IMG/VR virus record: IMGVR_UViG_2698536395_000021
Length of the DNA: 11,498 bases
Source: a virus
Taxonomy: Duplodnaviria; Heunggongvirae; Uroviricota; Caudoviricetes
Reading direction: 5' to 3' (one strand)
This document shows, piece by piece, positions 1 through 11,498 of the stretch. Each line of letters begins with the position of its first letter. Position 1 is the stretch's first letter. A program made the position numbers and the translations under genes. The notes under the pieces are model-generated. The model did not search any database. It saw only the letters and a list, made by a program, of their open reading frames with translations, and was not told the origin of the DNA.

Positions 1-351
1 GCCTGCGATGCCCTGCAGATGGCGCTGTGGCGGCGTAAGAGGCCCCGGAACGTTATCGTTCACACGGACCGTGGAGGCCAGTACTGTTCAGCAGATTATC
101 AGGCGCAACTGAAGCGGCATAATCTGCGTGGAAGTATGAGCGCAAAAGGTTGCTGCTACGATAATGCCTGCGTGGAAAGCTTCTTTCATTCGCTGAAAGT
201 GGAATGTATCCATGGAGAACACTTTATCAGCCGGGAAATAATGCGGGCAACGGTGTTTAATTATATCGAATGTGATTACAATCGGTGGCGGCGGCACAGT
301 TGGTGTGGCGGCCTCAGTCCGGAACAATTTGAAAACAAGAACCTCGCTTAG
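1..351 (+). CDS. IS3-family transposase OrfB (DDE integrase core), C-terminal part; 5' end outside window
   Basis: Frame is open from base 1; the listed ATG at 19 is internal. Translation ...[55 protein letters not shown]...[19 protein letters not shown] matches the conserved C-terminus of IS3-family OrfB (IS2/IS3/IS600 pattern; IS600 assignment from memory). Confidence 0.9.
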
Positions 352-381
352 GCCTGTGTCCATATTACGTGGGTAGGATCA
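1..381 (+). mobile_element. Right end of an IS3-family insertion sequence (IS600-like), cut by the window edge; terminus placed at ...GTGGGTAGGATCA (381)
   Basis: Seen: transposase C-terminus in frame 1 from base 1; sequence 369-381 GTGGGTAGGATCA resembles the IS3-family right terminus (reverse complement of the TGATCnTACCCA left-end consensus, recalled from memory). GC-richer than the downstream cassette. Exact IR length not determined. Confidence 0.8.
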
Positions 382-502
382 CGCAGGGGTCGGCCCATTT
401 GAGCTTCAGATAGGAACGTTTGAATTCCTTTCACAAAATACATCACATACTGAACGTGAACATTCCCACTTTGATCTTAAGGCCAAAAAGTATGCAGGAC
501 TA

Positions 503-2221
503 ATGATTTTTAGGGATAGCTTGAGAGTATTACCTTATGGTCGAGTAGATAATGATTTCTTCCAGATAGAAGAAAGACGTTCATGGAATGCAGGGCGATA
601 TTATTGGTCTAATAGAAGGATTTTTGGTTATATTGGAATTACTCAATCCAGTAATAAAGAGCTGAAAGATAAGTCGGGGAGAGAGGGATTCATAAGAAAC
701 CAGGCTGCAAGAGAACTGAAAACTATTATATCTAATTTGTTAACTGAACTTGCTGATAGATTTTTTGGTTCACGTTCTGATGACCGTAAAGAGCTTTTAG
801 AACAAGTTAAGCGTGAAAAAGAGTTAAGAAAATCTGCTCAACAACAAGCTCGAAAATCAACACAAAAAAGTTTTTCAGAAGCTTTGAAGAATCAGACACC
901 AGTTCTTGATGCTTCCTTGGAGGCTGTTAAAAGGCTGAAAACTAAGCTTGATAAAACTGATGGTTCGTTAGATTTAAACTATCTTAAAATTATAGACAGT
1001 GATCTTACAAACTTAGATGCGTTGCGCAGTGAAATTAAAACGCCTATCAAACCTCCAAAACTTGGAATGTATGAAGAGAAATATAGAGACTACAGAGATA
1101 AATTTAATGAGTTCTCTGCGTATATTCTACAAATGAAGTTAGCAATTAATAAACTTGATTCTGAATTAAATAAACTTGAGCCTTCATTGTCAGCGAAAAA
1201 TCACCTTGAAAAAAATCAAGGTATTATTAATTCTAAACTAACTAAGTTTAATAACACGATAGAGGAGAAGATACATTCTCTTTTAAAAAAATGGGCCGAT
1301 GAAATAAAGGTTGATCGAAGTGATTATTATGCTAAAACTATATCAGTTGTTGATTCAATAGATAATGATTCACAAATTGAAAATGTGTTTAATTTGCTCG
1401 ATAGTTTATATGTTGAGTCAGTTGATACCCTAACTTTCAAATATCAATCAATAATAAAAGGTCTCGATAGATTATTTGAAGGTATAAACTTAGATTCAGC
1501 ATTCTCATTATCTGAAGAAGAACGCTCATATTTTGAAGAAAAAGCTAAAAGTTTAAACGCGCTTGCACAGTTAGGTATTAGTGTTGAGATAATATCTCAT
1601 GAACTTGAAGAAATGGATTCTATGGTAACCAGAGGACTAAACTCTCTTCCTACTTCTGTAAAAGAACACCCTGGTTTTTCATTGGCGTTAAATGCTCACA
1701 GATCGCTTACTCAACAAATACGTTTCTTATCACCTTTGAAAATATCAGGTTATCAATCCAGGCAGAGAATAACTGGAAAAAATATCATGGATTATGTCCT
1801 GAAGTTCTTTGGGGAGCGTTTCGAACGGCAACGAATAACTATTGAATTTAGTGAAGAGTTTAAGCAAATCGCAATAACAGATATACCATTAAGGATCTAT
1901 CCTGTTTTTACTAATATTATCAACAATGCAATGTATTGGGTCAGTCTGTCAAATAATAGGCTCATAAAGATTGGTTTTGTGAATTCTTTGGTTATCATAG
2001 CAAATTCTGGTCCGGCAATTGATACCGATGATATCCCGCGACTATTTGAACTATTTTATAGCAAAAGAGCAAATGGACATGGGGTAGGTCTGTATCTATG
2101 TCGAGAAAACCTTGCTGTTGCACATCATAAAATATGGTATTCAGAACCTGATGAAGGCGATAACTATTTAATAAAAGATGGCGCTAATTTTGTGATCCAG
2201 TTCAATGGAGTGGAGTTCTAA
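503..2221 (+). CDS. Soluble histidine-kinase-like protein: N-terminal domain, long coiled coil, DHp-like His-box, C-terminal HATPase_c; possibly N-terminally truncated by the upstream IS
   Basis: 572 aa ORF, AGGA 4 nt upstream of ATG. No obvious TM segments. Coiled-coil-like region (KELLEQVKREKELRKSAQQQARK...). His-box-like ISHELEEM. HATPase_c motifs in order: N-box VFTNIINNAMYW, G1-like IANSGPAID, F-box-like LFELFYSKR, G2 GHGVGLYL. Motifs seen directly; domain assignment is by comparison with the histidine-kinase consensus from memory. Confidence 0.8.
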   Translation: MIFRDSLRVLPYGRVDNDFFQIEERRSWNAGRYYWSNRRIFGYIGITQSSNKELKDKSGREGFIRNQAARELKTIISNLLTELADRFFGSRSDDRKELLEQVKREKELRKSAQQQARKSTQKSFSEALKNQTPVLDASLEAVKRLKTKLDKTDGSLDLNYLKIIDSDLTNLDALRSEIKTPIKPPKLGMYEEKYRDYRDKFNEFSAYILQMKLAINKLDSELNKLEPSLSAKNHLEKNQGIINSKLTKFNNTIEEKIHSLLKKWADEIKVDRSDYYAKTISVVDSIDNDSQIENVFNLLDSLYVESVDTLTFKYQSIIKGLDRLFEGINLDSAFSLSEEERSYFEEKAKSLNALAQLGISVEIISHELEEMDSMVTRGLNSLPTSVKEHPGFSLALNAHRSLTQQIRFLSPLKISGYQSRQRITGKNIMDYVLKFFGERFERQRITIEFSEEFKQIAITDIPLRIYPVFTNIINNAMYWVSLSNNRLIKIGFVNSLVIIANSGPAIDTDDIPRLFELFYSKRANGHGVGLYLCRENLAVAHHKIWYSEPDEGDNYLIKDGANFVIQFNGVEF

Positions 2222-2222
2222 T

Positions 2223-3971
2223 ATGACAGTGGCAAATTATAATTCTCTTGTCCAGAAAACTTTCTGCGAAAATGCAATTCGTTCCGTTGTCATGATTGAT
2301 GACGATTTTCTGACGTATTCTGAATCAATCAGGGCGTTGAATAACGAAGTTGATTTAGACTACAACAAAATTGACTCATCTAAACGAGCCGCTACTCTTG
2401 AGAGCTTTTTTCAATCTAAAAATATGATTTGTGATGTTGACAATGGTTCTGTTAATTTCGATGTGGATCGGATTAGAAAATCAGATCTTATTATTGTAGA
2501 TTATCATCTTGATAATAATGCACCTGATAAAACACTTAAACTATTACAAGATTTGAAAGACTCCGATCATTTAAATATGATTGTAATATATACTAGAGAG
2601 AATTTAGAAACGGTTTGGATGCAGATATCATCGACTCTCAAAGGTGCTCTGGATATCAACAGCTTGATCATTGACTACGATAATGAAGATGTCCAAAGTT
2701 ATTGGGAAGACGTTGTATTACCGAACTTAAATGATAATGGTAATAAAGCTCTCACAAGAGATGAAATAATAGCCTATATTAAAGACAGTAAGCCTTGTAG
2801 AAGAATTAAAAGATTAATACATGATGATGCTGTGTTGGAGGATCAAAAGGATAAAAACTTCATTGCAAAAATGATTGCAGAATATGCTGTGTCTAGAAAT
2901 GCAATTATTTCTAGCAACACATCTGGCAATGTCATTCGGGGTGATGAAAGCGGAGTAAAATGGATTCAATGTGGTAATATCTTTGTCTCCCTATTTCATA
3001 AGGTTCAAGATGATCATGAAAACGATGGAGATAGGATTTGGCAAACTCTCAATGATTCTCTCATTGAATGGAAACCATCTTATTATCAGTTAATAAAATC
3101 TGAAATTCAGAATGCAATCGAAGCTGAGGCTTTATCTTTTGTAAATCATTTGGCTAACGATCATTACGGTCAAGCTGCGTGGTTAAATGAGATATTAAAA
3201 TCAGACTCGCCTGATATTAGATGTAGAAATATTGACTTTGTATTTGGTAATTTATCAGAAGAGCTTTATCAAAGACTTAAAAATAATAATACGCTGGATG
3301 AATTTATCAAAAGTGTTTTTGATAGCTATTCAAATGAATACGCTAACAGCGGAGTTGCTGCATTGCTCCAATATTGCTCTTCAAAAATGGATCTGCCATC
3401 AAATAATGATACTTATCACGAAATGTATCATGCTTTAAATATGAATTTGTCTTCAAAGAATTTTGAAGATGGTCATATTTCTACTGGCACTATTTTCTTT
3501 GATACAGAGTCGAACAAATGGTATTTATGTGTATCTGCGGCATGTGATTTGGTTCCTACTCAGGGTAACGACCCTCACCATGTAAGATTAAGTCCGCACA
3601 GGCTCATTAAAGTTCTGGAGCTTTTTAACGCCAGTCAGAGTAAAGCATTGCCATTTGCTGAACATTCGAAATATATATATGTAATGCATAAAAATCAAAG
3701 AAAATATCTCTCTATTTTCGAAGGGGATAAAACGCTTCCTGTTGTTGATTATATGGTGGTGTTGAATCATGGAACAACAGTTGATGGCGAAGAAAAAAAT
3801 ATTATTTCTGCCGTGTTTTTAAGTAATATGGATGGCAACGTGCAAAATGTTCCTGTCCGACTCAAACTTAAATCTCAACTGAGAACTGGTTATGCAGAAA
3901 GATATCAGGCTATAGCGTCTCAGTATAGCTCAAGGATTGGTGTGGATTATGTATCAATGATGCTACCATAA
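2223..3971 (+). CDS. Receiver (REC)-like domain protein with a large C-terminal domain of unknown function; no recognisable DNA-binding output
   Basis: Start moved from the ORF-track ATG at 2205 to ATG 2223 (MTVANYNSL...): it lies 1 nt after the upstream TAA (2219-2221) and 7 nt after GGAGTGGAG. The N-terminal ~130 aa fits a receiver fold: VVMIDDD (acidic pair), DLIIVDYHLDNN (candidate phospho-acceptor Asp), NMIVIYT (conserved Thr position), then a Lys. The remaining ~450 aa show no motif I can assign. Confidence 0.8.
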   Translation: MTVANYNSLVQKTFCENAIRSVVMIDDDFLTYSESIRALNNEVDLDYNKIDSSKRAATLESFFQSKNMICDVDNGSVNFDVDRIRKSDLIIVDYHLDNNAPDKTLKLLQDLKDSDHLNMIVIYTRENLETVWMQISSTLKGALDINSLIIDYDNEDVQSYWEDVVLPNLNDNGNKALTRDEIIAYIKDSKPCRRIKRLIHDDAVLEDQKDKNFIAKMIAEYAVSRNAIISSNTSGNVIRGDESGVKWIQCGNIFVSLFHKVQDDHENDGDRIWQTLNDSLIEWKPSYYQLIKSEIQNAIEAEALSFVNHLANDHYGQAAWLNEILKSDSPDIRCRNIDFVFGNLSEELYQRLKNNNTLDEFIKSVFDSYSNEYANSGVAALLQYCSSKMDLPSNNDTYHEMYHALNMNLSSKNFEDGHISTGTIFFDTESNKWYLCVSAACDLVPTQGNDPHHVRLSPHRLIKVLELFNASQSKALPFAEHSKYIYVMHKNQRKYLSIFEGDKTLPVVDYMVVLNHGTTVDGEEKNIISAVFLSNMDGNVQNVPVRLKLKSQLRTGYAERYQAIASQYSSRIGVDYVSMMLP

Positions 3972-4042
3972 TTATTATATTTTAGGCGTGGTGATTTTTT
4001 TTCGCCATGCCTATTTTATATTTATCATCACAATGATGTTGT

Positions 4043-4459
4043 TTATTTTTGTTTAAGTCTTCTAAGCTTCATGCATTCTAATGAGAATAATAATAGAGTT
4101 GTGCTGTATATAAAGCCAGAGTTAGTTAATAACTTTAAATTTAATGCTTCAGGATTTTCACTGAGAAAGTGAAAGGCATAAACTAAGTATACAGCTAAAG
4201 TAGCCGTTCCAATTGTTGGTCCAATATCGCCTTGATCATGAGGTTCAAGGTTTACATTGAACTTGAAGATTAGCCATTCAAATCCCCAAGTAAAAAAAAC
4301 AACTAATATCATGGCTGCGAATAATTTCGCGATGTTATCTGCTGATGGATTCATCAGAACAGATTGTTTCTGAAAAAATTCACAAAGTGAGAGTCCGAAA
4401 AAAATAAAAAAAAGTGGTCTGGAACTAAATTTTTCAAAAACTTTGAATAGGGTTTCCAT
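4043..4459 (-). CDS. Small hydrophobic membrane protein (about 4 predicted TM helices), function unknown
   Basis: 138 aa ORF with ATG start, 38 bp downstream of and co-directional with the integrase. Hydrophobic stretches PLFFIFFGLSL, LFAAMILVVFFTWGFEWLIF, ATLAVYLVYAFHF, FIYSTTLLLFSL. AT-rich like the adjacent cassette. Confidence 0.6.
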   Translation of the reverse strand: METLFKVFEKFSSRPLFFIFFGLSLCEFFQKQSVLMNPSADNIAKLFAAMILVVFFTWGFEWLIFKFNVNLEPHDQGDIGPTIGTATLAVYLVYAFHFLSENPEALNLKLLTNSGFIYSTTLLLFSLECMKLRRLKQK

Positions 4460-4497
4460 TTTCTTTACCTTCAGGATTATATTAGCTATTCTGATAC

Positions 4498-5727
4498 TTA
4501 GGCTACCAGAGCATTTGATCTTTGAGCTTGAACGTAATCACTCCACCATTGCATCAAACTCTGTCGCTCTATCAGATATTCTGCACGATTGTATGCTGCG
4601 ATAATTTCATCTTTTTTCGAGTGGGCAAGCGCTGCCTCAAGAACTTCAGCTCTGAATTTACCAGACTCCTCTGCCGCTGTTCGTGCAATAGAACGCATAC
4701 CGTGAGCTACAAGCTCGCCTCCGAACCCCATTCGGATGATAGCTGCGTTGGCTGTTTGTTCATGCATATGATTAAGAGGCGCTTTTATGCTGGGGAAAAC
4801 CCATTCTCTATGCCCACTTATTGATTTCATTAATTCAAGGATGCGCAAAGCTTCTTTACTCAAAGGAACTTTGTGAAGCTTTTTCATTTTCATGAAATCA
4901 GCAGGAATGTTCCAAATGCTGTTGGTTGTATCAATATCAGACCACCTTGCGCGAACGGCTTCACCCGGACGAACCCATGTCAACAATTGCCATTCAATTA
5001 GCATACGTGTTTCCAACCGGATTGACGCATTCGTCAAAGATTCCATAAACCTTGGCAATTCGCTTGGGGGAAGGGCAGGCATATTTTGCTTTTTTGGTTT
5101 ACTGAATCTTTGACCAAGGTTGTCAGCCGGGTTGAACTCAATAAGTTCTTCAGTAGCTGCCCACCGGAAGATTTCATTCAGACGTGAAATGATACGGCGT
5201 AGAGTTTCCAATACGCCTCGTTGCTCAATAGGATCAAGGTGTTGTTTTAAGAGCTTAGGTCGGATCTCATTGATAGGGACATTACCCAGACCGGGAAAGA
5301 CATTTCTCTCTAAGCTGCGCCAGATGTCTGCTGCATGGTCTTGTGAGATACCTGATGTCTTTACCTTCTCATCTAACCATTTCCGCGCTACGGCTTGGAG
5401 AGTGTGCTCAGTAGCACTCTTTAATGCCTTCGCCTTATCGTTGTTATGGATTTGGGGATCAACACCATTTGCCAGAAAGGAGAGATATTCATCACGTAAG
5501 GCTCTGGCTCTTGCAAGGGTAAGGTGAGGATATGTCCCAAGGCTCATTTTGGTTCTTTTCTTGCTCACGGGTACTGCATACCTGAAATACCAATTTTTCT
5601 TGCCTCCTTTCGCCAAAGGAGCGATTCGTAGAATCAGACCATCACCGTCAAACAAGTTGATTTCTTTATCGGCTGGCTTGGTGCTTTTGATTTCAGTGTC
5701 AGTGAGCTTCTTAGCGATTTTTGCCAT
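4498..5727 (-). CDS. int: P4-type tyrosine integrase (IntA/CP4-57-like)
   Basis: Start taken at the ATG at 5727 (MAKIAKKLTDTEIK...), which has GAGG 8 nt upstream and aligns with the N-terminus of E. coli IntA as I recall it; the ORF-track start at 5769 has no SD. Matches include DGDGL, ADIWRSLERNVFP, ALRILELMK, HGMRSIARTAA, LAHSKKDEIIAAYNRAEYLIERQSLMQWW. Confidence 0.92.
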   Translation of the reverse strand: MAKIAKKLTDTEIKSTKPADKEINLFDGDGLILRIAPLAKGGKKNWYFRYAVPVSKKRTKMSLGTYPHLTLARARALRDEYLSFLANGVDPQIHNNDKAKALKSATEHTLQAVARKWLDEKVKTSGISQDHAADIWRSLERNVFPGLGNVPINEIRPKLLKQHLDPIEQRGVLETLRRIISRLNEIFRWAATEELIEFNPADNLGQRFSKPKKQNMPALPPSELPRFMESLTNASIRLETRMLIEWQLLTWVRPGEAVRARWSDIDTTNSIWNIPADFMKMKKLHKVPLSKEALRILELMKSISGHREWVFPSIKAPLNHMHEQTANAAIIRMGFGGELVAHGMRSIARTAAEESGKFRAEVLEAALAHSKKDEIIAAYNRAEYLIERQSLMQWWSDYVQAQRSNALVA

Positions 5728-5824
5728 TTTGGGACCCTCGGTTTTTGGACCCTTCTTAGTGGGTCCCATTCAGGGTGCCATAACTCGTAGTTCTCAGCAA
5801 TTCTCACTGGACGACAATAGACGT

Positions 5825-5856
5825 AAAAAAGCCCGCAGAGCTTGTGCTGTGTGGGC
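5825..5856 (-). terminator. Rho-independent terminator on the minus strand, between the ssrA-like core and the integrase
   Basis: Minus-strand RNA reads GCCCACA-(loop CAGCACAAGCUC)-UGCGGGC then UUUUUU. Stem has 4 G-C pairs, one A/C mismatch, then 2 more pairs. The plus strand has the A-tract before the hairpin, so it is minus-specific. Confidence 0.5.
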
Positions 5857-5891
5857 TTAGTAGACTTCATTGAACTTCAAACAACTAAAAA

Positions 5892-5916
5892 GTGGAGCTG
5901 GCGGGAGTTGAACCCG
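5892..5916 (-). other. Attachment-site core: 25-bp copy of the 3' end of tmRNA (ssrA), without the rest of the gene
   Basis: Minus strand reads CGGGTTCAACTCCCGCCAGCTCCAC, identical to the E. coli ssrA T-arm/acceptor 3' segment as I recall it. The CCA end is replaced by TTTTT, and upstream sequence does not continue as tmRNA; no 5' acceptor partner within 400 bp. Lies about 165 bp upstream of the P4-type int start. Confidence 0.7.
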
Positions 5917-5975
5917 TGCCCGAGCAATGCTTAACCCATTGAATAACAATGCATTCTCTGTTTAAAAATGCCTCA

Positions 5976-5997
5976 AGTGCATTTTGAGTGCATTTTC
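5976..5997. repeat. Perfect tandem direct repeat of an 11-bp unit (AGTGCATTTTG / AGTGCATTTTC)
   Basis: Seen directly at 5976-5986 and 5987-5997, about 60 bp from the att core on the prophage side; a related AATGCATTCTCTG lies at 5948-5960. Confidence 0.5.
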
Positions 5998-6025
5998 TGG
6001 TCCTCTCTTGGTCCATACAACGAGA

Positions 6026-6967
6026 TTAAGTGGCCACTTGAAGTTCCGGCCCTGCGTCGCTATCTATTAACGGCTGACCTTGAACCATTTTTTCAACCAT
6101 ATCGTTTGAAGGATATGGAACCCCGAGCTCAACCGTATTAGGGTTGGAACGGTGGGTTTCAACAAACGATGTTCCGTTCCATTTTTTTGAAAGGTAGATT
6201 ATTCCTTCAAAGGCTGCAGGGTCCTGTTTCTGAGACTCTAAGATCATGTGGAAGCCACGACGTTCTATCCCGCGTAAGAAGCTGGAGAAGCACTCCCTCA
6301 GTAATTCGTCATCCAAATCCTTGAACTTGATACCCTGCGCAAGAAACTCGAAATAATTAAGAATATATAAAAGGCCATTGATGGCATCCCTGTACTCATC
6401 GGGGACCTTCATATTCTTGTATTCTTCTTTGTCTGGGTTGCAGCGCCACTCTGATAGTTCTTGTGGTACATAACGCATGCCCCGATAGAATTTGGTGCTG
6501 TTCCGAAGCTGTTTTTGGTACTCCGGGCTTGTTCGGGTGTTAATGATCATGTTCAGCGTGTGGGACCTGCGCGTGTTAGCAGCGGACGTTATGCATTGTA
6601 TCCACCATCCCATTCCAACGAGCATTCCTGTAACCATGATCGAAAGCGATGTTTGATAGGCCGGTGTGTACCTTAAAATTGCATATCCAATAAGGATAAT
6701 CACATAACAAACAGTGCTGAACATAGGAAGAAATTCTGCAGTGTCTGGATAGCGTTTTTTGATGAAGCAGAAGATAGAAGATATTGCTGCACCAGAACCA
6801 GCAATGACGATCAGCCAATCAATGATGGCGATGCTAAATGGTAGTTTTCCAGGGTAGATATAAGTAAAAAGTGCTCTGACAATCATCATTAGAGCAAAAA
6901 TTGTAGCGCTGACGTTGACTAATGTTCTCGCCATCTTATTGATTCCTATAACAAAAGACCTCCGCAT
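6026..6967 (-). CDS. Membrane protein: N-terminal about 4 TM helices plus about 180 aa soluble C-terminal domain; function unknown (prophage cargo or moron candidate)
   Basis: 313 aa ORF with ATG start (alternative Met 12 codons in, MARTLVNV...). Hydrophobic segments ATIFALMMIV, AIIDWLIVIAGSGAAISSIFCFI, MFSTVCYVIILIGYAIL, SIMVTGMLVGMGWWI, then a charged C-terminal domain. Sits between the lambda-type int 3' end and the att core. Confidence 0.75.
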   Translation of the reverse strand: MRRSFVIGINKMARTLVNVSATIFALMMIVRALFTYIYPGKLPFSIAIIDWLIVIAGSGAAISSIFCFIKKRYPDTAEFLPMFSTVCYVIILIGYAILRYTPAYQTSLSIMVTGMLVGMGWWIQCITSAANTRRSHTLNMIINTRTSPEYQKQLRNSTKFYRGMRYVPQELSEWRCNPDKEEYKNMKVPDEYRDAINGLLYILNYFEFLAQGIKFKDLDDELLRECFSSFLRGIERRGFHMILESQKQDPAAFEGIIYLSKKWNGTSFVETHRSNPNTVELGVPYPSNDMVEKMVQGQPLIDSDAGPELQVAT

Positions 6968-7012
6968 GGGAGGCCTTATTGTGCTAATGGAGGTTTGTTT
7001 TAAAATTTTAGG

Positions 7013-7098
7013 TTGTAGTTAACCTTCACCGAAACCTACGGTCAGTGTCTTTTTCATAGTGTTCACTCCAGTTGTGGTGCTTCGCCGATACCTACGTT
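7013..7098. repeat. Imperfect direct repeat of about 30 bp (TTGTAGTTAACCTTCACCGAAACCTACGGT ... TTGTGGTG-CTTCGCCGATACCTACGTT), copies about 57 bp apart
   Basis: Seen directly; the 17-bp cores CTTCACCGAAACCTACG (7024-7040) and CTTCGCCGATACCTACG (7080-7096) differ at 2 positions. Lies in the 450-bp AT-rich non-coding gap between the 313-aa gene start and the int stop. Confidence 0.5.
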
Positions 7099-7416
7099 AA
7101 GCTCTTGAAAAGTAAAAAAACATAAAAGTTTTAGAATTTGTGGAGCACAGGATAACAGTTTGTACTGGGACTCATCAAGTACTATCAGTGTCCTTGCACT
7201 GTCCTAGTGAAAATTTATTGCAATAAAGTAACTTACGTGAAGTCAAGAAATATATTTGCACTCCATTTCTTGCTATGATGTAAGTTATTGATTTTAATTA
7301 AATTTACAATTACCTAAATGAACTATGGAAACTATCAATAACATAGATGATAGCTCATTTCACAAAAAGCAATGGTAGACTCATTCTTAATTTTCATCAG
7401 CCTTAAGCCTATGTAC

Positions 7417-8592
7417 TCAGCTTGACACAACATTTATAGACGTTTTACCATCGTATTCAGCCAGGTATTTACCGTAATTGCGGAACAGCATTTCCGGCCC
7501 CTTATGCCCCATCTGCCCGGCAAGCCAGAAAAGGTTTACACCCTGGCTAATGTGTCTGGTGGCGAATGTGTGGCGCGTCTGGTACGGGTTACGGTAGCGC
7601 ACACCAGCTTTTTTCAGGGTCGGCACCCATGCTTTTTTACGGATAGCGTCGGCGTTCGTCCAGGGTTCTCCCGTTTTCGGATCGCTGAATATGAACTCAC
7701 TTTTCATAAAGGTGTATTGCTTCTGCGCCTGCAGGGCTGCCAGCGCCTCACTGTTCAGCTCCACCTTACGGGTACCGGCTTTTGTCTTGGTGCCTTTAAG
7801 TACCCCTACGACACTGGCCGCCTGAACGTGGGCTGTGTTCGCGATGGTGTCGAGATCAGCCCAGCGCAGCGCGCACAGTTCTGAGCTCCGCAGACCTGTA
7901 TTGAAAGCAAAGCGGAACAGGTTTTCCCATTCCCTGTACCTGCAGCTCTGGTAAATGGCAAGGGTCTCCGCTGGCGTGAACGGGTCAACCTCGTAATCGT
8001 CGGCGCTCGGGCTACTGTCGATCACGTGGTACCGGCTGGCGCTGACGAGGGTTACCGGGTTAATGGTCAGCAGGCCATCCGTAACAGCTTCATCAATGGC
8101 GCTGCGCAGAAATGACAGGTTATTCCTGATTGTTTTCAGCTTAGTTTTTCGGCTGGCTATCCAATTTTTTAGTATCGCAGGCGTCAATTCTGTTACATGT
8201 AGTTTATGTAGTTCTGATAGTGCTGATAGACATTTTTCGTAACCGCCAATGGTTGACGGCGACAGATTACGGTTTATGCAAATTTTCAGGTATTCATCAA
8301 GATAGGACTTAATATTTTTGGTTTTCTTTACTACACCGAATAACTCCAGTTTTTTGGAATTGGGGAAATATTTCGCATATTCAAACGTTCCGCTGGCGAT
8401 CTGATTTTGTATCTCCCCTAGCAGGCGCTCAGCATATTTTATACCACGTGTATTTGCCTCAAGCCGAGATAGGGGCTCCCTGCAAAGAACCCCTTTATAT
8501 GTGAAAGTGATAACTAGTGTTGAAGCAGTTTTATGCTTACGAATAGTTACTCCTCTTGGCAGAGATAATAATCCTTGTTCTTTCTTGCCCAT
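7417..8592 (-). CDS. int: Lambda-type tyrosine integrase (phage integrase family)
   Basis: Start taken at the ATG at 8592 (MGKKEQGLLSLPRGV...), with AGAGG 7 nt upstream; the ORF-track start 8619 is 9 codons further up. C-terminal catalytic region ...LRWADLD...RHTFATRHISQGVNLFWLAGQMGHKGPEMLFRNYGKYL has the conserved R/H/Y pattern. 5' end overlapped by an excisionase-like gene, as in lambdoid xis-int. Confidence 0.9.
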   Translation of the reverse strand: MGKKEQGLLSLPRGVTIRKHKTASTLVITFTYKGVLCREPLSRLEANTRGIKYAERLLGEIQNQIASGTFEYAKYFPNSKKLELFGVVKKTKNIKSYLDEYLKICINRNLSPSTIGGYEKCLSALSELHKLHVTELTPAILKNWIASRKTKLKTIRNNLSFLRSAIDEAVTDGLLTINPVTLVSASRYHVIDSSPSADDYEVDPFTPAETLAIYQSCRYREWENLFRFAFNTGLRSSELCALRWADLDTIANTAHVQAASVVGVLKGTKTKAGTRKVELNSEALAALQAQKQYTFMKSEFIFSDPKTGEPWTNADAIRKKAWVPTLKKAGVRYRNPYQTRHTFATRHISQGVNLFWLAGQMGHKGPEMLFRNYGKYLAEYDGKTSINVVSS

Positions 8593-8756
8593 TTTGAAAC
8601 CTCTATTAAGTCGACCCAACGCTCTTTAACCCCGTCGACTTTTAATACATGTACCCCTTCTTTCCATATTCCTCTTTGTATCCGTTTGTTAACGGCATCA
8701 ACCGTTTCTCCCGCGTTGCGGCAGTAGGTTGATATAGGTACGCAATCCAGCCCCAC
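8547..8756 (-). CDS. xis: Excisionase-like small DNA-binding protein (Xis family, tentative)
   Basis: 69 aa ORF starting with GTG, overlapping the int start by about 45 nt. The segment GETVDAVNKRIQRGIWKEGVHVLKVDGVKERWVDLIEVSKWARKNK resembles the lambda Xis winged-helix region (ETVRRWVRE...VKDGREYLF) as I recall it. Start codon uncertain. Confidence 0.6.
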   Translation of the reverse strand: MGLDCVPISTYCRNAGETVDAVNKRIQRGIWKEGVHVLKVDGVKERWVDLIEVSKWARKNKDYYLCQEE

Positions 8757-8764
8757 AGTTCACC

Positions 8765-8911
8765 TCACACAACATTCAGCCCACGACAGTGACACCACAC
8801 TTCAAACATTCGTTTCACAATTTCACGACAGTAGAAACCGTCAACATCTCGCGTCAGGTCATAGCGATTGCCGAATGTCTTGCGAACCCATAACTCAAAA
8901 ACCGTATGCAT
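8765..8911 (-). CDS. Hypothetical 48-aa Cys-rich small protein
   Basis: Hand-translated: MHTVFELWVRKTFGNRYDLTRDVDGFYCREIVKRMFEVWCHCRGLNVV. ATG sits 3 nt after the upstream gene's TGA, same strand as the operon. Below the ORF-track length cutoff; no similarity evidence. Confidence 0.3.
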   Translation of the reverse strand: MHTVFELWVRKTFGNRYDLTRDVDGFYCREIVKRMFEVWCHCRGLNVV

Positions 8912-8914
8912 GTA

Positions 8915-9157
8915 TCACCTCCGTTGCATTGCGCGCAATTTTTTCAGGTGCTTTTCCTGCTCAGTGTCCGCCAGGATTTTGCAATACTGCTGGTGGTCAA
9001 TATGTTCGAACAGGCAGTTGAACTCACCAATGCATACCCGCCCGGAGTGTCCGTCCATACGTCGAAAGAACACAGAGCGGTCCGTACAGCGAGTAATCAC
9101 CACAGGGTATCCGGCCCTGTCCGTGTATATTTGCCCGCGTTGAATAAGTGCGAACAT
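8915..9157 (-). CDS. Hypothetical small phage protein (80 aa)
   Basis: ATG start; co-oriented and close-packed with the surrounding minus-strand operon. Preferred over the overlapping plus-strand ORFs 8868-9143 and 8906-9190 on operon context only. Confidence 0.5.
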   Translation of the reverse strand: MFALIQRGQIYTDRAGYPVVITRCTDRSVFFRRMDGHSGRVCIGEFNCLFEHIDHQQYCKILADTEQEKHLKKLRAMQRR

Positions 9158-9161
9158 GAGA

Positions 9162-9245
9162 TTATCCCCAGCGGCAAATCGAAAAAATAATCAGCGCAAT
9201 CGATATTGCAACACCTACAATTGCAAATGCTTCAGGCCAACTCAT
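9162..9245 (-). CDS. Candidate 27-aa hydrophobic micro-protein (single TM helix)
   Basis: Hand-translated MSWPEAFAIVGVAISIALIIFSICRWG. Its ATG overlaps the upstream stop (ATGA at 9245-9242), and its 3' end TGGGGATAA supplies a GGGG SD for the next gene. No other evidence. Confidence 0.3.
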   Translation of the reverse strand: MSWPEAFAIVGVAISIALIIFSICRWG

Positions 9246-10105
9246 TGACTCACCTCCTGCGGCGGTTCTGGTAGAGGCATCCAGTGGGTTACATCGCATT
9301 CAGGGATGCTGATATCATCACCAAGCCACCCTTGACCTTCAGACCAGCATTGCACGTAATACCCGTATTCTGTGTTCACTACGCACCACTGTGCGTCGTT
9401 CGGCATTAGCTCACTACAGCTTATCCAACCATCCGGAGTTACCGGAACTTGCGGAATGGCTGTCTGCTCTCGAACGTCATTAGGCGCTATAGGTTCTGCT
9501 GCCAACTGACTGGCATATTTGTTAATGGTAACGATAAGCTCTTGCTCAGCCTCATCCAGATAATCACCGATACCTCGCCTGTCACCGTCAAAATCATCGA
9601 AATCGGCACGAATCTTGGCAACCTTCTGGATTGCGGACAACACCTCACTAGGAATTACCGGATAGTTGGTTGACGTTTCCGCGATTTCCCGAAAATTATT
9701 GGTTGACGAATTCTTATTTTCCCGAAAGTTTCTGGCCTGAAGCATGGCGGCGCGGCAGGCATTCCAGCCAGTAGCGTAATATTTCGCATCCTGCCAGCTC
9801 GTTTGTACATTTGAGTACGCTTTTTCCTCTGTCATGGCCTCTGGTATTGATGCCGGTGCAATTCGTGGCAGGCCGATATATAGTGGTACATCTCCCGGCT
9901 CCATCGAATTGACGGGCCAAATATACGCATCACTACCATGGTTAATGAGCGCAATCCCCGAAGTATCGATGATGCCAAATGGCTCCGCTGTCAATGCAGT
10001 CAATGCAATTTCATAAGCCCGACGCTCAATATTGTCTCGCACGTCCAGGCTGCTTATGCGCTCTTTGATTTCTTTAATCAGTTTCTTATCGGTGAAAGTG
10101 GTCAT
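9242..10105 (-). CDS. Lambdoid prophage early-region protein (287 aa); Cys/Trp-rich C-terminal module, possibly DUF551-like
   Basis: ATG start with AAGGAG 6 nt upstream; stop of the upstream gene 1 nt before the ATG. C-terminus ...WISCSELMPNDAQWCVVNTEYGYYVQCWSEGQGWLGDDISIPECDVTHWMPLPEPP is reminiscent of a module common in enterobacterial prophage early genes (from memory; needs HMM confirmation). Confidence 0.75.
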   Translation of the reverse strand: MTTFTDKKLIKEIKERISSLDVRDNIERRAYEIALTALTAEPFGIIDTSGIALINHGSDAYIWPVNSMEPGDVPLYIGLPRIAPASIPEAMTEEKAYSNVQTSWQDAKYYATGWNACRAAMLQARNFRENKNSSTNNFREIAETSTNYPVIPSEVLSAIQKVAKIRADFDDFDGDRRGIGDYLDEAEQELIVTINKYASQLAAEPIAPNDVREQTAIPQVPVTPDGWISCSELMPNDAQWCVVNTEYGYYVQCWSEGQGWLGDDISIPECDVTHWMPLPEPPQEVSQ

Positions 10106-10106
10106 C

Positions 10107-10436
10107 TCACTCTCCTTTGATGCGAATGCCAGCGACGCGTAGTGCGTGTTCTAAGTCAATCAGGCAAAGCCAGCTGCCATTTTCTTTAGGTATCATGACA
10201 TGTCGCTTATCAGCATTTATTGGGTGCCCATATCGAAGGTCGTAGCGAGTCGGTAATTGAACTTCCCTCGCTTCCAGTTCTGTAATGCGTTTGTTTTTAG
10301 CTTCTAGTTCATCCAGCAGCACCAGCACAACCTGCGGTGTGACTTTCATACGAAACGCAAGCAATTTTTGCGGCGTTGCCACGACTTTTATTGCTTCTGC
10401 CGCCTCACGCAGTGCCTGATAGTCAATCTTGCTCAC
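10107..10436 (-). CDS. Hypothetical lambdoid early-region protein (109 aa); possibly Ead/Ea22-like
   Basis: GTG start with AGGAGG 6 nt upstream, overlapping the upstream stop (GTGA). Coiled-coil-like LLDELEAKNKRITELEAREVQ. Family name is a guess from memory. Confidence 0.65.
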   Translation of the reverse strand: MSKIDYQALREAAEAIKVVATPQKLLAFRMKVTPQVVLVLLDELEAKNKRITELEAREVQLPTRYDLRYGHPINADKRHVMIPKENGSWLCLIDLEHALRVAGIRIKGE

Positions 10437-10672
10437 TGGTTGCCTCCTTTACGGATCTGCGCTGCGATGCGCGAAAAAAAAGCCTCCCGCGTATGGCTGT
10501 TAAGAGCTGGCGCGAACGCCGCGTTAAGAACGGCAGCATCACAGCCGTCATCGATATAGAGCGCAATTTTTTTCTCCAGGCGCGCTTTGGCTTCCTGCAA
10601 CTGCATACCCCGGCACGCACGCGGGATATAATCAGCAATTTGAGCGATAGCTTTTTCGTTCTGTTTAAACAT
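10433..10672 (-). CDS. Hypothetical phage protein (79 aa)
   Basis: ATG start; overlaps the upstream gene by 8 nt and the downstream gene by 4 nt. Amino-acid composition looks natural, unlike the overlapping Arg-rich 120-aa ORF 10423-10785. Confidence 0.6.
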   Translation of the reverse strand: MFKQNEKAIAQIADYIPRACRGMQLQEAKARLEKKIALYIDDGCDAAVLNAAFAPALNSHTREAFFSRIAAQIRKGGNQ

Positions 10673-10868
10673 GCTTCACCTCGATAGGCTTGATGGTGTC
10701 TAACAGCAGTCGGCGGCGCGTATTTTCTGCAAAATGGCGGCGTCCAGTTTCTTTGTGGTAAAACTCGTTTTTGCCAACGACCCACATCCGCTCTGTTTGG
10801 TGCAATTTTTTTACCTGCGGGCCATCTTTGGTGATCACGGTACCGGTATGGGTTTTTACGATTGTCAT
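10665..10868 (-). CDS. Hypothetical phage protein (67 aa)
   Basis: ATG at 10868 overlaps the upstream gene's TGA (ATGA at 10868-10865). Confidence 0.6.
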   Translation of the reverse strand: MTIVKTHTGTVITKDGPQVKKLHQTERMWVVGKNEFYHKETGRRHFAENTRRRLLLDTIKPIEVKHV

Positions 10869-11498
10869 GCCACGACCTCTTCGAATTTCAACTCCAATTG
10901 GTCACCCCAGATTTCACATGATTCGGAACACGAACCAGTATCAAACCGCTTGGCCAGCACCATCGCCTGATACAAACTTCTGTAGTCGCTGTCGGCATAC
11001 ATTCTGGCAATCCCGTCAAGCGTCAGGTGACCACGGTACATAACGTCTTTACCTGTTCTGCGATGACCATCCCTGACGTGTTTGCCTGTAACCAGTTCAT
11101 TAAAAACCCGCATCAGACCGGGTTCGTCTTTACATGCAAGCCCCAGCTTTTGCGTTGACTTTTTGATGCAAAAAACACAGTTCCCGAGGTGCTCCGGGAT
11201 TTGCAAATCAAAAGGTTGTTTTTGCCACCACCGGATAACATCCGACTTATCAAAATCTGACAGCTCGGCAAGATACCGGACGCCAGGTTTCGGTTTCAGC
11301 CTACGGGGTTCGTCCGCACGAATACCGAGCCATGTGATGTAATTCCCTCGCCCAAAATGGTCATCGCAATATTTCGTGAAAGGGGTGAGTTTTAGCCTGT
11401 CAGTACAGAATGCGCCGCCGATGTATGAGGTGTACTGGCAATAGCGGCCACTACCATTTGTTCTTTTTTTAAGCAGCCATCTGATGATATTTTTCCCT
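10865..11498 (-). CDS. PAPS-reductase-like (phosphoadenosine phosphosulfate reductase family) phage protein, C-terminal part; N-terminus beyond the window
   Basis: The ORF-track TTG at 11206 is only the first start codon in the window. Hand translation shows the same frame open with no stop from 11497: ...GKNIIRWLLKKRTNGSGRYCQYTSYIGGAFCTDRLKLTPFTKYCDDHFGRGNYITWLGIRADEPRRLKPKPGVRYLAELSDFDKSDVIRWWQKQPFDLQIPEHLGNCVFC... LGIRADE and the following W-rich and Cys motifs fit the PAPS reductase family as found in lambdoid prophages (from memory). Confidence 0.6.
   Translation of the reverse strand, partial: GKNIIRWLLKKRTNGSGRYCQYTSYIGGAFCTDRLKLTPFTKYCDDHFGRGNYITWLGIRADEPRRLKPKPGVRYLAELSDFDKSDVIRWWQKQPFDLQIPEHLGNCVFCIKKSTQKLGLACKDEPGLMRVFNELVTGKHVRDGHRRTGKDVMYRGHLTLDGIARMYADSDYRSLYQAMVLAKRFDTGSCSESCEIWGDQLELKFEEVVA

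Follow-up and report, generated by a model that had tools for sequence, protein, structure and literature searches.

A 25-bp fragment of the tmRNA gene ssrA, lying between two integrase genes in the 11,498-nucleotide stretch of viral DNA analyzed here (IMG/VR record IMGVR_UViG_2698536395_000021, referred to as the window), is very likely the displaced 3′ end of ssrA at the int-proximal junction of a ~54-kb lambdoid effector prophage that inserted between ssrA and an older P4-type island. Comparison of phage-free and lysogen genomes bears out the original prediction that two elements are stacked at ssrA: phage and island share a single ssrA. The tandem arrangement is thus real, but only the phage has an ssrA fragment of its own, as the strict Islander sense of the term would demand of each element. 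The interpretation offered earlier is supported with two corrections, one concerning the origin of the orphan fragment and the other a 3-bp deletion at its end; the observation behind it was confirmed with three small corrections.

The fragment occupies positions 5892-5916 on the minus strand, where the window reads CGGGTTCAACTCCCGCCAGCTCCAC. All 25 bases are identical to nucleotides 337-361 of ssrA, which is 363 nt long in this E. coli lineage; a failure to align with the host gene had been named beforehand as one of the findings that would overturn the prediction. By simple 4^25 arithmetic, ~2e-11 chance occurrences of such a 25-mer are expected in 11.5 kb. It takes in the T stem-loop together with the 3′ acceptor strand and the discriminator, and it breaks off after the first C of the CCA (CTCCAC/TTTTTAG, as compared with CTCCACCA in ssrA). 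The claim of an exact copy of the tmRNA 3′ terminus therefore holds for every base present but not for the terminus as a whole, which is incomplete. The rest of ssrA is absent, as had been noticed: ARAGORN detects no complete tmRNA gene in the window, the partial match to the Rfam tmRNA family (RF00023) scores 13.9 bits, below the family threshold of 47, and neither search recovers a complete tmRNA with a tag reading frame. No second copy of the 25-mer occurs in the window or in the 20 kb to its left, even with up to six mismatches allowed.

The genomic setting supplies the missing gene. Positions 1-11427 of the window are 100% identical to E. coli O26:H11 strain 11368 (NC_013361) and to many other O26 genomes. 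In strain 11368, intact ssrA lies at 3604541-3604903 (smpB and ssrA together span 3603844-3604903), the orphan lies at ~3659116-3659140, ~54.2 kb away and pointing in the same direction, and a whole lambdoid prophage fills the interval between them. Next to ssrA is the tail end of this prophage, where a dinI-like gene is found together with espK, espN, and nleL, which encode type III effectors. Strain RM10386 has the same layout, with intact smpB-ssrA at the other prophage end, so that the intact gene expected beyond the right edge of the window is found, together with smpB, in both strains. At this far end, ssrA reads ...CTCCACCA and then continues into phage-arm sequence, CTTTTGATAGG, which is identical to the attP of phage LMessi; an intact ssrA is regenerated there by element-borne sequence. 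A search for core copies, proposed as a means to delimit each element, succeeds for the phage, which is bounded by the orphan and by ssrA, but not for the island, for which the 20 kb to the left hold no copy.

Domain matches confirm the two neighbors ascribed to the orphan. On its left, the P4/CP4-57-type integrase gene (4498-5769, minus strand) encodes a complete set of DUF4102-type arm, central, and catalytic domains (Pfam Arm-DNA-bind_3, PF13356; Phage_int_M, PF22022; Phage_integrase, PF00589), and the N-terminus of its product matches solved domain structures of a "CP4-like integrase." The island cargo lies farther left and consists of an open reading frame for a hypothetical protein (4043-4459, minus strand), a receiver-domain protein (2205-3971, plus strand; Response_reg_2), and an HK-like ATPase (503-2221, plus strand; HATPase_c and HEF_HK). 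On the right of the orphan, a DUF4760 cargo gene (6026..6967, minus strand; E=8e-16) is placed between the att arm and the int gene of the prophage. The latter (7417-8619, minus strand; phrog_1 integrase) encodes a lambdoid tyrosine integrase, Int, with an Arm-DNA-bind_2 domain (PF12167; residues 21-89, E=4e-21) and a Phage_integrase catalytic domain (E=3e-18), in which the R, HxxR, H, and Y motifs are represented by TGLRSSE, RHTF, GH, and the terminal Y in an alignment to Tn1549 Int. An excisionase gene (8547-8756, minus strand; phrog_2917, E=2e-41) overlaps the start of int, and DUF4222, DUF551, and Ead/Ea22 early-left genes, identified by domain matches, follow farther right on the same strand. 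PADLOC matches were insignificant throughout, both in the island cargo and in the DUF4760 gene, and no defense system is assigned to either.

The element that generated the orphan can be identified from genomes that lack the phage. A chimeric query that continues from the ssrA tail into the sequence on the left side of the orphan represents the phage-free site and matches ~1000 E. coli genomes, at one place per record. In these genomes nothing separates ssrA from the island: the island integrase gene comes first, then the genes for the HK-like and receiver-domain proteins, IS3, and an amylase gene that is truncated. The ssrA-island junction reads CTCCACCACTTTTTAG in ~1000 of them, and 11 carry the same junction with a 3-bp deletion; among all these matches there is a single copy of the core and no orphan. 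Conversely, an attP reconstructed from the int-proximal arm, the core, and the int-distal arm of the prophage lines up, at 87.8% identity across both arms, with one uninterrupted stretch of the genome of the free phage LMessi, which also contains the 25-mer block, and it matches the annotated attP of Cronobacter phage phiES15 as well. Because of the empty-site genomes and the contiguous LMessi attP, we attribute the orphan to the lambdoid phage, not to the island: it makes up the core of the att junction at the int-proximal end of the prophage.

The wording of the original prediction implied instead that the orphan was the duplicated core that a P4-type island leaves at its far junction after integrating into ssrA. 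P4-type integrases do target ssrA, an integrase gene of this type adjoins the fragment, and in many genera ssrA is followed by this island sequence. Even so, we regard this origin as extremely improbable, and the empty sites, at which phage-free genomes join the island to intact ssrA, already refute it. The sequence upstream of the orphan, moreover, is a phage attP arm, contiguous with the core in LMessi, and the fragment sits at the int-proximal end of the island, with no copy at the far end.

The order in which the two elements arrived can be argued from the same genomes. Had the island come second, integrating into an orphan left behind by the phage and used as a secondary attB within the array, the same final order would have resulted, and junctions of an orphan followed by an island, with no adjacent tmRNA gene, are seen in Photorhabdus, Serratia, and Dryocola. 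This sequence of events is nonetheless very unlikely for E. coli. The island, including its junction with IS3 and the truncated amylase gene, is fixed in at least 510 E. coli genomes without the phage, at 99.8-100% identity, whereas the phage is limited to ~78 genomes. The island also lacks a distal repeat and looks immobile: its far end consists of IS3 and the truncated amylase gene, no displaced ssrA fragment of its own is found in the 20 kb to the left with up to six mismatches, and GenBank AJ304858 annotates it as a "remnant integrative element." Phage-free E. coli and seven other genera have its integrase gene immediately 3′ of ssrA and in the same strand orientation. Since it lacks a distal copy, we conclude that, as judged from these sequence comparisons, the P4-type island is an old, immobile remnant that appears to have become fixed beside ssrA.

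We therefore favor a history in which the phage came to a chromosome that already held the island. In this ancestral chromosome, the P4-type island would have been fused to the 3′ end of ssrA, supplying its trailer and terminator. A phage whose attP contained a copy of the ssrA 3′ end would then have recombined, through its Int, with ssrA; the phage copy would complete a functional ssrA at the far, or tail, end of the prophage, and the original 3′ end would be pushed ~54 kb away, to abut the island. A circle excised from this position would carry the attP junction ...GGGCACGGGTTCAACTCCCGCCAGCTCCACCACTTTTGATAGG....

The position of the crossover within the shared core can be narrowed. Between the canonical attB (as in strain 503025) and the phage attP, identity is unbroken over 32 bases, CGGGTTCAACTCCCGCCAGCTCCACCACTTTT; other family members have a G-to-A change in the 5′ T-stem, and the block common to all is GTTCAACTCCCGCCAGCTCCACCA. 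Whatever lies 3′ of the crossover has to be restored by the phage, and the two T-stem arms form an inverted repeat around a loop of 7 nt; we infer from this that strands are exchanged within this T-loop or close to it. Such a placement would accord with Williams' sublocation rule, which is well established.

Next to the core lies a tandem repeat (5976-5996, minus strand; Tandem Repeats Finder: period 11, 1.9 copies, 100% match), which very probably represents a pair of candidate arm-type Int sites. It had been described as an 11-bp perfect repeat spanning 5976-5997; the period and the match are correct, but base 5997 (C) differs from 5986 (G), leaving 21 perfect bases rather than 22. Within the repeat, the 9-mer AAAATGCAC occurs at 5988-5996 and 5977-5985, 11 bp apart, and these are its only exact copies in the window. 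Over ~87 kb that cover the prophage and its flanks (L001 and L002), it occurs exactly four times; each att arm has two copies 11 bp apart, and all four point the same way. The pair in the int-proximal (P′-like) arm is 72 and 83 bp from the center of the T-loop, and the pair in the ssrA-proximal arm (L002, 10697-10716) is 113 and 124 bp from it.

The same layout recurs among relatives. Of 80 IMG/VR loci whose Int shows 91% identity or more, ~70 have ATGCAC-N5-ATGCAC on the downstream side of int, and the motif begins 78 bp ahead of the core in every locus that allowed both to be placed. The 1.4-kb DUF4760 cargo is present in some relatives and absent from others, and the distance from arm site to core is unchanged. 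When 11 diverse junctions are aligned, both motifs, the core, and a TTCAA-N4-TTA element are invariant, and the spacers between them vary freely. Pairs in both arms are also found in LMessi, in two further loci (L038 and L053), and in the much more divergent phiES15, which keeps ATGCAC/GTGCAC pairs. The TTCAA-N4-TTA element lies between the arm sites and the core, at 5932-5944 (minus strand) in the window, and its TTCA and TTA columns are invariant in all 11 arms; its sequence, ATTCAATGGGTTA, fits the IHF consensus WATCAANNNNTTR as judged by eye, making it a candidate IHF-like site. The motif conservation, together with the arm-binding domain in Int, is the reason for reading the tandem repeat as arm-type sites, and the earlier suggestion that it may bind a recombinase is accordingly well supported by comparative evidence: a pair in each arm, invariant, and at a fixed distance from the core. 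By extension, AWATGCAC, in 11-bp-spaced pairs in both arms, is a well-supported candidate for the arm motif of a widespread family of ssrA-targeting lambdoid integrases.

The repeat might alternatively bind Xis or another accessory or regulatory protein, or might have arisen by chance. The last of these is excluded, since all four copies within 87 kb are at att arms. A role in binding Xis or some other protein has in its favor that lambda Xis also binds tandem direct repeats and that further conserved GGAC/GAC columns, just upstream in the alignment, lack an explanation, but we consider it improbable. Lambda Xis sites are confined to one arm, and the pairs described here are in both; neither the motifs nor their distance from the core changes, although the spacers do; and the arm-binding domain of Int needs such sites. 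We thus retain Int as the probable ligand. Binding of the arm pairs by the Int N-terminal domain would, together with the IHF-like site, create a lambda-like intasome layout. As far as can be read from the DNA, the phage has in common with lambda a heterobivalent Int with an N-terminal arm-binding domain, xis beside int, and tandem direct repeats of a candidate arm-type site near int, with more such sites across the core; the likeness would extend to IHF if the candidate site between arm and core is one. In contrast to lambda, the arm-binding domain belongs to the PF12167 family, the motif is AWATGCAC, 2+2 sites are seen rather than 2+3, and the core resides inside a structural RNA gene.

On the other side of the orphan, the trailer and the terminator come from the island. 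The trailer, TTTTTAGTTGTTTGAAGTTCAATGAAGTCTACT, occupies 5859..5891 (minus strand) as defined by alignments and is followed by an intrinsic terminator at 5823-5858 on the same strand, composed of a hairpin (5858-5829) and a T-run down to 5823; the coordinates proposed for it, 5825-5856, were essentially right. In phage-free genomes this terminator is the first after ssrA, and in the window it would be expected to end transcripts arriving from the int/DUF4760 side of the prophage. An 18-mer from it, ATGAAGTCTACTAAGCCC, is found in 16 species genomes, in 11 of which it lies ~22-24 nt past an intact tmRNA gene. The whole block, consisting of the ssrA end, CTTTTTAGTTG..., the terminator, and the leader of the integrase gene, is conserved at ~95% or more in six genera (Citrobacter, Kluyvera, Enterobacter, Klebsiella, Buttiauxella, and Xenorhabdus). 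Because it is conserved after ssrA across genera, we take the segment to be island-borne and to serve ssrA as a replacement trailer and terminator.

The best Rfam match at these coordinates is not a terminator but the Salmonella small RNA IsrM (RF02763; 5825-5899, E=5e-12, 51.5 bits), raising the question of whether 5825-5899 encodes a homolog of this RNA. Position adds to the resemblance: Salmonella isrM lies between STM2762 and STM2763, just upstream of the latter and on the same strand as this downstream gene (PMC2330248), and the position of the island terminator is consistent with an equivalent location. Membership in the family was nevertheless rejected, and we give an IsrM homolog next to no credence. 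The score is far under the gathering threshold of 376 bits; the match covers only the two ends of the model, with 253 central positions missing; the 3′ part of the match is the conserved ssrA terminator of the island; and the promoter scan found no promoter-like site around the orphan that would support an independent transcript.

The end of the orphan departs from what phage integration would leave behind. The predicted junction is ...CTCCACCACTTTTTAG, and strain UTAK-6, which has the same phage in a different chromosomal background, has exactly that. The window reads CTCCACTTTTTAG, 3 bp shorter than the predicted junction: CAC, which precedes the canonical trailer, is missing at the junction with 5859-5891, and the loss can equally be written as a deletion of CCA. 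This shortened orphan is present in 59 of the 60 best-matching genomes, which belong to O26:H11, O111:H11, and one O103 strain. All other genera and ~1000 E. coli genomes read CCACCACTTTTTAG; because all other genera keep CCACCAC, the 3-bp deletion is derived.

Being 3 bp short of the predicted product, the orphan calls for an extra mutational step or for a variant attB that existed before integration.

The deletion is not confined to lysogens. Eleven complete prophage-free genomes of the same lineage, including H19 and the O111:H11 strain 8D, carry it on ssrA itself, such that their tmRNA gene ends ...CUCCACUU, with no encoded CCA. Six of the 11, H19 and 8D among them, show essentially no differences across 8 kb, and the closest phage-free genome that retains the CCA is set apart by a 3-bp gap and by a slightly lower bit score, 14739 versus 14776, which corresponds to an estimated few substitutions. 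A CCA-less ssrA is the product that would be expected, from the sequences of the two junctions, if the prophage were lost by a crossover inside the 25-bp repeat. Such loss, through the action of Int/Xis or through recombination of one 25-bp repeat with the other, would move the CCA-less end onto ssrA, and a cured attB to which the deletion had been transferred would read CTCCACTTTTT. The events may also have occurred in the opposite order, with the deletion arising first in ssrA and the phage later restoring the CCA. Since O26:H11 and O111:H11 both contain both states, there must have been more than one gain or loss.

What this means for tmRNA is a matter for more tentative thought. In these lysogens, the CCA-encoding end of ssrA would come only from the effector prophage, and curing would leave a CCA-less end; it is conceivable, though we are inclined to doubt it, that the resulting tmRNA is matured poorly, weakening trans-translation and either stabilizing the prophage or shifting the burden to rescue by ArfA. 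Since E. coli possesses both RNase BN and an enzyme that adds CCA, the loss of the encoded CCA may be tolerated.

The arrangement has close precedents; it is an ordinary textbook tandem array at ssrA, already published, and the strain 11368 genome has long been public. The nearest counterpart is CP-1639 of the O111:H- strain 1639/77 (AJ304858), which occupies the same locus in the same order: gab-side genes, the remnant element (HK-like, hypothetical, and intA genes), a lambdoid prophage, ssrA, and smpB. The int-distal arm of CP-1639 beside ssrA, including its arm-type pair, is 81% identical to that of the prophage studied here. CP-1639 differs at the int-proximal junction, which has been destroyed by IS629/IS3 with truncation of intA, and the orphan and arm sites are lost there. 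Tandem arrays at tRNA and tmRNA genes are a catalogued class (Williams 2002/2003; Islander database, PMC4383910), and the present array shares with them a regenerated target, a displaced 3′ fragment in direct orientation, an internal integrase, and several elements per tDNA; it differs in that only the phage has its own fragment, the island having lost, or never retained, a distal copy. The use of ssrA as an integration site by lambdoid and Stx phages of EHEC is likewise documented (PMC2323221; PMC8112680).

A possible functional parallel is the CP4-57/ssrA "phage regulatory switch." Mutations of ssrA induced by excision, CP4-57 deltaT357 and others, are documented (PMC10107115, Table 1), and the two cases have in common a decayed displaced fragment and an element whose loss leaves ssrA with a mutated 3′ end. 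They differ in what is lost, the encoded CCA here (CTCCAC/TT) rather than an acceptor-stem base, and in the element responsible, a lambdoid phage and not a P4-type island. Unlike in the CP4-57 cases, natural genomes with the resulting CCA-less allele exist; neither a CCA-loss variant nor natural "cured" carriers appear in Table 1 of PMC10107115.

These results describe ssrA as a hotspot for stacked integrative elements, whose boundaries are marked by displaced fragments of the target gene. The fragment at 5892-5916 precisely delimits the left end of the EspK/EspN/NleL prophage of EHEC O26 and helps in prophage typing. The arm motif with its IHF-like site, and the recognition that the "IsrM" match in Rfam is merely the conserved terminator of P4-type ssrA islands, go modestly beyond published annotation; they are useful details rather than a new kind of system. 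The same modest advance is made by the finding on the encoded CCA: curing this prophage would leave EHEC with an ssrA that has no encoded CCA, a state that is present in nature.

Three base pairs (CAC/CCA) are missing, at 5889-5893, from the orphan ssrA 3' fragment when it is compared with the expected junction, which is complete, without the deletion, in UTAK-6 (locus L011, 9096-9125). The same deleted end is present on ssrA itself in 11 phage-free genomes of the O26/O111:H11 lineage, including H19 (locus L003, 12100-12108); the tmRNA gene of these genomes therefore lacks an encoded CCA.

On the prophage side of the orphan, a DUF4760 gene (6026-6967) lies between int and the att arm of the lambdoid prophage, a typical moron position. 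Many relatives with near-identical Int do not carry this gene (e.g., locus L061, 4200-4360), and their arm sites begin ~56 bp past int, whereas in this phage the distance is ~1.43 kb. Just upstream of the tandem arm-type pair, at ~6001-6015 on the minus strand, GGAC and GAC columns are invariant across 11 aligned att arms that otherwise vary; these columns could constitute an additional protein-binding site.

The match between the window and strain 11368, or most O26 genomes, ends at 11427, leaving 11428-11498 outside; an IS600 is located near this match end in related genomes. A 6-bp indel within the P4-type integrase gene, near 5512, separates RM10386 from the window, and in RM10386 the DUF551 region, corresponding to the window ORF at 9242-10105, is annotated as pseudogene fragments.

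The cargo of the P4-type island comprises two overlapping genes (503-3971) with Pfam HATPase_c/HEF_HK and Response_reg_2 domains, families described from predicted conflict systems; PADLOC returned no match for the pair. At least 510 E. coli genomes carry this gene pair fixed beside ssrA. At the ssrA-facing end of the island, 5825-5899 on the minus strand gives a partial match to the Rfam IsrM model in which the two model ends alone align, the matching 3' part being the terminator conserved among P4-type ssrA islands. This suggests that Salmonella isrM may be placed at the equivalent island end. The leader and terminator of this island recur in genomes of Photorhabdus, Serratia and Dryocola (L106, ~2700-2765; L101, ~5070-5135; L094, ~7125-7190), where an ssrA-like 3' fragment precedes them, and no tmRNA gene was found in the 8-kb loci of these three genera. 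Junctions composed of a displaced fragment followed by an island, like that in the window, therefore exist in other genera.
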